DNA of 64,000 bases, from assembly GCA_951406725.2 (NCBI GenBank), contig OX597839.1, positions 3,224,001 to 3,288,000 on the forward strand, read 5' to 3'. A model generated the notes under the pieces. The model searched no databases. It had not been told where the DNA came from and was given only the letters and a program-made list of their open reading frames with translations. The stretch's first letter is position 1. Every line of letters begins with the position of its first letter. The DNA comes from Octopus vulgaris. Taxonomy: Eukaryota. A program made the position numbers and the translations under genes. Below, one piece after another: positions 4,797 through 5,401 of this stretch.

Positions 4797-5401
4797 AAGG
4801 CGGCGAGCTGGCCGAAACGTTAGCGCGCCGGGCGAAATGCTTAGCGGTATTTCGTCTGTCGTTACGTTCTGAGTTCAAATTCCGCCGAGGTCGACTTTGC
4901 CTTTCATCCTTTCGGGGTCGATTAAATAAGTACAAGTTACGTACTGGGGTCGATATAATCCACTTAATCTCCGTTTGTCTGTCCTTGTTCGTCCTCTCTG
5001 TGTTTAGCCCCTTGTGGGTAGTAAAGAAATAGGTATTTCGTCTGTCGTTACGTTCTGAGTTCAAATTCCGCCGAGGTCGACTTTGCCTTTCATCCTTTCG
5101 TGGTCGATAAATTAAGTACCAGTTTCACACTGGCGTCGATGTAATCGACTTAGTCCCTTTGTCTGTCCTTGTTTGTCCCCTCTATGATTAGCCCCTTGTG
5201 GGTAGTAAAGAAATAGGTATTTCGTTTGTCTTTACGTTCTGAGTTCAAATTCCGCCGAGGTCGAGACTTTGCCTTTCATCCTTTCGGGGTCGATAAATAA
5301 AGTACCAGTTTCGCACTAGGGTCGATGTAATCGACTTAGTCCCTTTGTCAGCCCCTGTTTGTCCCCTCTATGTTTAGCTCCTTGTGGGCAGTAAAGAAAT
5401 A
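4797..5401 (+). mobile_element. SINE family A head-to-tail trimer
   Basis: One full unit plus two units starting at ggtatttcg; flanked by TSD atatatatgttgcatgtgtg. Confidence 0.92.

Follow-up and report, generated by a model that had tools for sequence, protein, structure and literature searches.

Insertion preference and head-to-tail multimers of an abundant SINE in Octopus vulgaris

In the 64-kb stretch of Octopus vulgaris DNA analysed here (the window), the 3' ends of several copies of a short interspersed element, termed SINE A, run directly into a part of the element's own sequence. This arrangement raises the question of whether new copies are directed into older ones by a target site that SINE A itself carries, as a sequence-only reading had proposed, or whether such multimers are formed in another way, on the RNA or on the DNA. 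The analysis favours, with a probability of about 0.6, target-primed reverse transcription that prefers a loose GRTAT motif, with the element's own site as the best match and with a homology-primed second strand that drops the incoming head.

SINE A and its multimers

SINE A is an interspersed, non-coding element of ~235 nt in which no coding frame of note is found. A BLAST search with the first unit yielded 30 pieces. These represent 12 SINE A loci, the remnant of a junction (38552-38599) and ~9 copies of sister families that have head and body in common with SINE A and differ in their tails. Most of the counts below rest on the 64-kb window alone, with these 12 loci as the sample. Contigs aligning to one SINE A copy number 460,738 and 232,653 in two public runs, figures that count contigs and not copies. 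Target site duplications (TSDs) are present at 6 of the 12 loci (p<=0.005 against random window sequence), with lengths of 11, 15, ~15, ~17, ~17 and 17-20 nt. The TSD search found none for the other six, where candidates of 4 nt (30388) and 7 nt (31087) are non-significant.

The head contains what we take to be an A-box-like word (TGGC.GAA.CGTTAG) and a B-box-like word (GAGTTCAAATTCC). ARAGORN found no tRNA in the head, and Rfam gave no tRNA match within 4700-5500 and no match to a ribozyme family up to E=10 in the same interval. Retrozyme-type circular retroelements have a self-cleaving ribozyme at the unit boundary. Two candidates of this kind were rejected for SINE A: an HDV-like ribozyme, suggested by the ability of GGUAUUU to pair with AAGUACC of the body, has no Rfam match and the wrong spacing, and the pairing is missing from the consensus fold; a ribozyme-bearing circular retroelement of the retrozyme type has no ribozyme here, and a headless circle could not supply the head that is present on the copies.

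OR1 and OR2 of octopus are reportedly sister families with a common 5' part and different tails, and we assume that SINE A may equal one of them (CORE-SINE superfamily, with a CORE domain of ~60 bp). SINE A resembles OR1/OR2 in being an abundant octopus SINE, with a tRNA-like head. These octopus tRNA SINEs (Ohshima and Okada, 1994) are cited in the accessible parts of PMC4824008 and PMC4758252. As for the partner LINE, no LINE frame occurs in the window and no match was obtained in eight supplement files of PMC9115989; searches of metagenome, genome and viral contigs with the tail or body pattern gave 0 matches.

Multimers occupy 5 of the 12 loci (Table 1). The head-to-tail multimers that had been described do exist, but they are not full-length chains: each consists of one head of ~50 nt followed by two or three headless bodies of ~185 nt, and no inner head is found anywhere in the window. 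The trimer at 4797 and the dimer at 10565 are each enclosed by one TSD. Multimers are found at 5 of the 7 loci whose heads read GGTATT, or AGTATT as its CpG-decayed form (the class to which two multimer heads were assigned), versus 0 of the 5 loci with CCGTAT heads (Fisher p 0.027). Since two linked positions distinguish the head types, this association may reflect lineage.

Table 1. SINE A copies and associated features in the window (minus-strand features marked -)
Feature	Coordinates	Strand	Remarks
5' TSD of trimer	4777..4796	+	20 nt; in the 3' copy, ATA at the tail end doubles as its first 3 nt
Trimer head, single, tRNA-like	4797..4845	+	...GCTTAGC at its end; contributes the 5' arm and the loop to a long hairpin
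Trimer body 1	4846..5031	+	start GGTATTTCG, end AAAGAAATA; lineage unlike bodies 2 and 3, variant at nt 14 in common
Trimer body 2, headless	5032..5215	+	4 downstream variants common to body 3
Trimer body 3, headless	5216..5401	+	most private changes (7)
3' TSD of trimer	5399..5418	+
Monomer, CCGTATT-type head	521..750	+	~17-nt TSD, start AAATATT
Dimer 10565-10965	10550..10983 with TSDs	+	single 15-nt TSD (10550-10564, 10969-10983)
Bodies of dimer 10565-10965		+	lineages differ; two variants in common, nt 15 and 17
Inner junction of dimer 10565-10965	10778-10783	+	additional GAAATA tail repeat
Host repeat, other tRNA-like element (family D)	11205..11990	+	SINE A at both + strand GGTA sites
Monomer, CCGTATT-type head	11247..11479	+	11-nt TSD GGTATTCGGCT (11236-11246, 11480-11490)
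Monomer, CCGTATT-type head	11656..11883	+	uninterrupted paralogs at 1010-1252 and 47239-47367; TTAAG meets GGTAC at the empty site
Dimer	18227..18603	-	head shortened at a TA microsatellite; rare haplotype common to both bodies; outer flank GGTTAT
Chimera: head, A body, body with sister family B tail	28860..29262	-
Monomer, GCGGTATT-type head	30388..30613	+	flank GGTATC; reference for public-run alignment
Dimer	31087..31494	+	8 variants common to both bodies; outer flank GATGTG
48-nt remnant	38552..38599	-	tail-to-GGTATT junction only, fused to an unrelated repeat
Monomer, CCGT-type head	39221..39455	-	imperfect TSD, start GGTAGT
Monomer, GCGGTATT-type head	41112..41339	-	no TSD found
Monomer, CCGTAT-type head	63629..63860	-	imperfect TSD, start GATAAA

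A loose target motif and its self site

Of the 18 SINE A tails that a fuzzy search identified in the window, 7 run into the element's own GGTATTTCG, situated at head nt ~50; the remaining 11 are outer ends. At the self-junctions AAATA ends at 5031, 5215, 10783, 18411 (-), 29030 (-), 31310 and 38578 (-), and is followed by GGTATTTCG or a one-base variant of it. The outer flanks read GGTATT (11480), GGTACG (11884), GGTATC (30614), GGTAGT (39220, -), GGTTAT (18226, -), GATGTG (31495), GATATA (41111, -) and GATAAA (63628, -), with exceptions at 750, 5401 and 10965. Three tails (18227, 31310 and 63629) carry point changes. All seven places at which tails had been reported to continue into internal sequence, and all the GGTA/GATA-like outer flanks together with the three exceptions, were recovered with coordinates within 1 nt.

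Six of the 11 outer ends are followed by G(G/A)TA, a motif with a background frequency of 0.6% in the window (binomial p 2e-11, which is optimistic for a motif chosen post hoc). When the G is assigned to the SINE tail, (G/A)T is found in 8 of 8 cases (p 5e-7) and (G/A)TA in 6 of 8 (p 1e-6), values that are optimistic for the same reason. Compared column by column with GGTATTTCG, the 11 outer flanks have G in 9, a purine in 11 (G in 5, A in 6), T in 9, A in 7, T in 6 and T in 5. The target motif of SINE A is a loose G-R-T-A-T-T of 4-6 nt, and the exceptions TATAT (5402) and AATATT (750, with the A run read one base on) still match R-T-A-T. One fixed long target site of the R1/R2 type is absent, the 11 unrelated outer flanks having only this loose motif in common. 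A T stretch ~10 nt upstream of the TSD was likewise absent, with T at -9 to -12 in 3, 3, 5 and 3 of 10 sites; the only T-rich upstream position is -4 (7 of 10 sites, p 0.013, uncorrected for 12 positions). The (GAAATA)n repeat of the tail was rejected as the source of the motif, as it accounts for the G but not for the T at +3.

The proposal that GGTA is target sequence holds: the TSD that flanks the 11247 monomer is real, and two further TSDs and empty-site paralogs agree with it. Three of the six significant TSDs start with G(G/A)TA, namely GGTATT (11247), GGTAGT (39455) and GATAAA (63860). At the 11656 locus, which has no TSD, uninterrupted paralogs of the host repeat read TTAAG and then GGTAC on the two sides of the insertion point. 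In the copy of this 314-nt host repeat at 11205-11990, both plus-strand GGTA sites are filled by SINE A and neither of the two minus-strand sites is. The host repeat, a tRNA-like repeat designated family D, also occurs at 1010-1252, 47239-47367 (-) and 52374-52556 (-). Its 3' part is found attached to another tRNA-like head at 52440-52760, indicating module swapping here too.

GGTA alone is insufficient for self-insertion. Other G(G/A)TA sites of SINE A, 1-2 on the plus strand (body nt ~124 and tail nt ~219) and 1-2 on the minus strand, are used in 0 of the 7 self-junctions, which implies a role for a more extended match (GGTATTT) or for the 50-nt homology. At the 41112 locus (41100-41112, -), the tail is followed by GATATAATCGA, which equals 11 nt of the SINE A interior, and then by unrelated sequence; it is doubtful whether this is an exception to the exclusive use of the head site.

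Relationships between units and the mechanism of insertion

Different lineages are joined at 3 of the 6 junctions for which both units are present (units 1/2 of 4797, 10565 and 29262). Units 1 and 2 of the 4797 trimer share 0 informative sites and are discordant at 10, and the units of the 10565 dimer share 0 and are discordant at 7. At the 29262 locus an A body precedes a B-tailed body, and the two agree over the first 10 nt only. A derived variant in the first ~17-20 nt is common to 4 of the 5 adjacent A-A pairs, both discordant pairs included. Elsewhere, sharing in the first ~20 nt is seen in 11% of 130 between-locus pairs and, among multimer units only, in 8 of 39 (p 0.007). The variants shared at the start of neighbouring bodies would represent a hidden TSD, a reading that supports real nesting, because the first bases of the upstream body are expected to derive from the old element if the top strand is cut 11-20 nt past the nick.

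Derived variants are also held in common further downstream, 3 in the 18603 pair, 8 in the 31087 pair and 4 in units 2/3 of 4797; at least 3 shared downstream variants are found in 15 of the 130 between-locus pairs (p 0.013). When weighted by rarity, sharing reaches 2.2-2.6 in three A-A pairs versus a maximum of 1.28 among the 130 between-locus pairs. Since 3 of the 5 A-A pairs have rare shared haplotypes past the first 20 nt, nesting of unrelated new copies is not the whole story, and random nesting is disfavoured as the sole process. Donor and target would often be coupled, by a common source, by re-priming, or by later conversion or expansion. The sharing of diagnostic variants between units, which had been named as the pattern that would speak against nesting, is thus found in three of five A-A pairs, and the other pairs are discordant.

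The age of the units gives a divided answer. Private changes in the last versus the first unit number 7 versus 3 and 7 versus 1 at two loci, and 1 versus 3 and 2 versus 4 at two others, so that the 3' unit appears older at two loci and the reverse holds at two. Units of the same haplotype differ from each other by 4-7%; the private divergence of single units is about half of that. The five multimers represent five distinct unit combinations. A TACC(T/C)ATG variant occurs in four A bodies within 2.5 kb (29030-31494), namely unit 1 of 29262, 30388, and units 1 and 2 of 31087. This clustering gives a hint of hopping or conversion over short distances; among public contigs, too, the variant is common.

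In the preferred reading, SINE A would be copied by target-primed reverse transcription with a partner LINE. Priming would prefer the bottom-strand end opposite the loose G-R-T-A-T-T motif; the motif itself is observed, and the nick is placed from it. The best site of this kind within SINE A is GGTATTTCG at head nt ~50, and copies with that head would become targets, in keeping with the association of multimers with head type. The outer TSDs suggest that the top strand is cut ~11-20 nt further on. The top-strand end, identical to the incoming cDNA, would anneal to it and prime the second strand, and the incoming head would be lost in this presumed join. The product would consist of the old head, the hidden TSD, the new body and the old body. 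The extra GAAATA at the inner junction of the 10565 dimer looks like a fresh priming event. The likeness of donor and target haplotypes may arise when the same source, or one beside it, is used again, or from conversion or unequal crossover between direct repeats, which would homogenise and extend the chain. The earlier claim that new copies are directed into older ones, with a seamless join by homology, is therefore retained in a qualified form: the TSDs, the empty-site paralog, the chimeric multimers, the hidden TSD and an unfused contig form (see below) speak for it, whereas 3 of 5 pairs share rare haplotypes and GGTA alone is no predictor.

Public runs were aligned to 30350-30660, where a deletion of 1 nt from the reference at 30444 makes the positions of joints less sharp; the figures come from the joints listed, and contig joints are not loci. 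In run X1 the tail-to-body joint from 30618 to 30447 is the deepest among the joints listed (24 contigs), and the other tail-joint variants among those listed all read tail + GGTAT + TT. One such variant is present in X13, a run labelled as another organism, in which depth at the tail end is far lower. X1 also contains an unfused form (30443 to 30388/30390, 3 contigs), in which the head leads to GGTATTTCGTCTG + TCG + AAAGGCGGT and then to a second head. This form has a 16-nt duplication before a full-length 5' end, and its incoming family may not be SINE A. Joints between opposite strands at 30388/30446 probably represent head-to-head neighbours and were left out of account.

Raw reads matched, after filtering, in 25 (X21) and 188 (X22) of 12.9 million each, those of X22 apparently coming mostly from local arrays. 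At flank position +3, 20 of 21 X22 reads have A, not T. A short repeated unit lies on the same tail-to-self junction in X22 (18 and 65 reads), which implies that later expansion can occur. Tandem-like units in X22 (reference 30350-30660) consist of a tail, 13 nt of the self site and a 5'-truncated tail unit, and are possible SINE-derived satellites; the same run also shows tails joined to the body near 30511 and 30545. The window has no long, homogeneous arrays built from part of a SINE; multimers there have only 2-3 units.

The motif could be read by RNA pairing or by the nuclease. RNA pairing is suggested by the graded match of the flanks to GGTATTT, by A at +2 (a G-T wobble) and by the tail overlap in the exceptions, as well as by the homologous sister tails, which end in ATT and sit in ATT runs. 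The nuclease is suggested by the start of reverse transcription at always the same base, by the absence of a copied GGTATT before an unrelated TSD (0 of 6 TSD loci), by the preference shared by CCGTAT-head monomers (4 of 5) and by the weak T at -4, outside the TSD. A tentative and rather unlikely reading places target choice in the SINE A RNA and not in the enzyme: a copy landing in an older copy would gain a GGUAUUUCG trailer guiding later insertions to GGTATT sites, above all to its own head, and this feedback would keep the preference heritable. If this were true, the CCGTATT head would be an escape variant immune to self-insertion, and the same enzyme would steer the ATT-tailed sister families to ATT repeats.

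Multimeric source transcripts, the alternative raised from the outset, are unlikely to be the main explanation. Here a few dimeric masters would yield an RNA of the order head-body-tail-GGUAUUUCG-body, reverse transcription could start from either tail, and the GGUAUU trailing the first tail would pair with the nicked target, selecting G(G/A)TAT without a specific nuclease. The outer flanks indeed grade against GGTATTT (9, 5 with 6 wobble-compatible A, 9, 7, 6, 5 and 4 of 11), the exceptions suit tail pairing (an ATA overlap at 5401, an A run at 750), and the tails of sister families B and C show homology around CCTTGT, yet end in ATT and lie in ATT runs. Units of the same haplotype within multimers also fit, and the available part of PMC6007223 describes tail sequence as shaping where RTE-related SINEs insert. 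However, five unit combinations in five multimers leave no dominant master, the copies with CCGTAT heads are all monomers and yet 4 of 5 lie at G(G/A)TA, and an RNA-copied GGTATT precedes an unrelated TSD in none of the six TSD loci. The first dimer would, moreover, still require nesting.

It is considerably less probable that a multimer is made in a single event. The LINE protein would then re-nick the fresh cDNA at GGTA or, on a template severed in the loop of the head hairpin, switch to another RNA's 3' end, and would again copy the same RNA or one bound together with it. The single head and single outer TSD of the multimers at 4797 and 10565 agree with such an event, as do same-haplotype units with a 4-7% divergence that is about twice the private divergence of single units, and a junction at the loop of a predicted long hairpin; but it predicts neither the variants shared in the first ~17 nt only by otherwise discordant units nor the head-TSD-head form in X1, and no ribozyme or other RNA family was matched. 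Plain DNA-level tandem duplication or unequal recombination, with the target motif as a separate matter, is disfavoured and very improbable as the origin of the multimers: same-haplotype units, the short repeated X22 units on the same junction (18 and 65 reads) and the proposals made, in the accessible text, for bivalve SINE arrays (PMC11481361) and reptile SINE satellites would fit it, but 7 of 7 junctions lie at the exact element end and one internal base, the outer flanks of the four A-only multimers (TATA, AAAGAGG, GGTT and GATG) are homologous to the internal site over no more than 3 nt, and chimeric A-B and discordant pairs are not producible by duplication.

Related systems and neighbouring repeats

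The accessible part of PMC11481361 describes TSD-(SINE)n-TSD multimers in the blood clam Scapharca broughtonii, and its authors suggest unequal recombination between TSDs. The clam and octopus multimers are alike in that they derive from mollusc tRNA SINEs, with one complete head, repeated units that are all truncated at one position of the head, and a single flanking TSD. The clam arrays are mostly of 2-3 units and some include another family, as in SINE A. In contrast, the inner units of the clam lack part of the tail, according to the same text, and the tails of SINE A are complete; nor does that text report an element-borne target motif for the clam, whereas the SINE A junction is the target motif.

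In Drosophila, R1 arrays form when copies insert into the TSD, and precise 5' joins of R1/R2 result from annealing of cDNA to the upstream target, as stated in the accessible part of PMC2718515. By analogy, and on a small sample, SINE A would insert into target sequence left 5' of an earlier copy and form a homology-primed 5' join. R1/R2 are autonomous and strictly specific for 28S rDNA, unlike SINE A, which is non-autonomous with a loose 4-6 nt motif inside the element. SINE A would thus work like R1 tandem insertion, yet it is not a site-specific element. In RTE-mobilised SINEs, the TSD start tracks the tail repeat with an overlap of one or two bases, and a T stretch lies near -10 (PMC6007223, accessible part). 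Their TSDs (mostly 7-15 bp) overlap in length with those of SINE A (11 to 17-20 nt), and in both the TSD start correlates with the RNA 3' end. On the other hand, the bias of SINE A spans 4-6 nt, compared with the overlap of 1-2 bases in RTE-mobilised SINEs, and has no T stretch at -10. Squamates have SINE-derived satellites made of tandem repeats of part of a SINE (PMC10702118, in part accessible). Tandem repeats of a SINE part within SINE copies are a common feature; the SINE A arrays of the window differ in that they end at three units and have a fixed, target-like junction.

The accessible parts of three octopus repeat papers (PMC13282606, PMC8967140 and PMC12988792) contain no mention of SINE target preference or self-nesting. 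An abundant SINE with its own preferred target and a hidden TSD appears to be undescribed for octopus in the searchable literature, which covers few subscription papers and neither Repbase nor Dfam. The ingredients of SINE A self-insertion are already known, and it is their combination that appears to be new for octopus. SINEs make up ~11.6% of the O. vulgaris assembly, and most of its recently active SINE families are unclassified, according to the accessible part of PMC13282606. If a multimer share of 5/12 is typical, chimeric units distort copy numbers and ages, as well as subfamily trees, for a major repeat of octopus. Nesting of SINE A would be a concrete route from a dispersed SINE to a tandem repeat, for which the bivalve and reptile papers invoke recombination, and SINE A offers a natural many-event system for distinguishing between the nuclease and the RNA 3' end in the choice of the insertion site.

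Copies of the sister families B/C, with a tail of ...CCAAAATTTGAAACC followed by ATT, are situated at 9900-10170 (+), 34438-35290 (+) and 46600-46980 (-). They are full-length head-to-tail neighbours in ATT runs, apparently inserted behind older tails. A CCTTGT stem-loop is common to the tails of families A, B and C.

A frame at 32111-33163 (+) is 100% identical (32111-33160, over 350 aa) to an Octopus sinensis protein named sex peptide receptor. This sex peptide receptor-like GPCR is a single frame ~600 nt past the 31087 dimer, and is apparently located either in intergenic DNA or, on the opposite strand, among the exons of other genes. Exon-like pieces at 47450-47700, 55200-55400, 57500-57700, 60700-60800 and 61130-61330 (-) presumably belong to a gene like those of cationic amino acid transporters, and a fragment at 3335-3859 (-) resembles what we take to be a mariner-type transposase.

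A short repeat ending in ...TACCACACAGCC is present in at least 11 copies, at 20830-20920, 39460-39620, 42280-42380, 44900-44990, 45830-45920, 48376-48470, 51580-51670, 55690-55780, 58790-58880, 59180-59260 and 60860-60940, and the A loci 10565 and 39455 sit just downstream of copies of this repeat. Minisatellites with units of 18, 28, 75 and 16 nt occupy 49465-50700, 54378-54962, 59631-60537 and 61415-62025, and the 75-nt array is 99% homogeneous.
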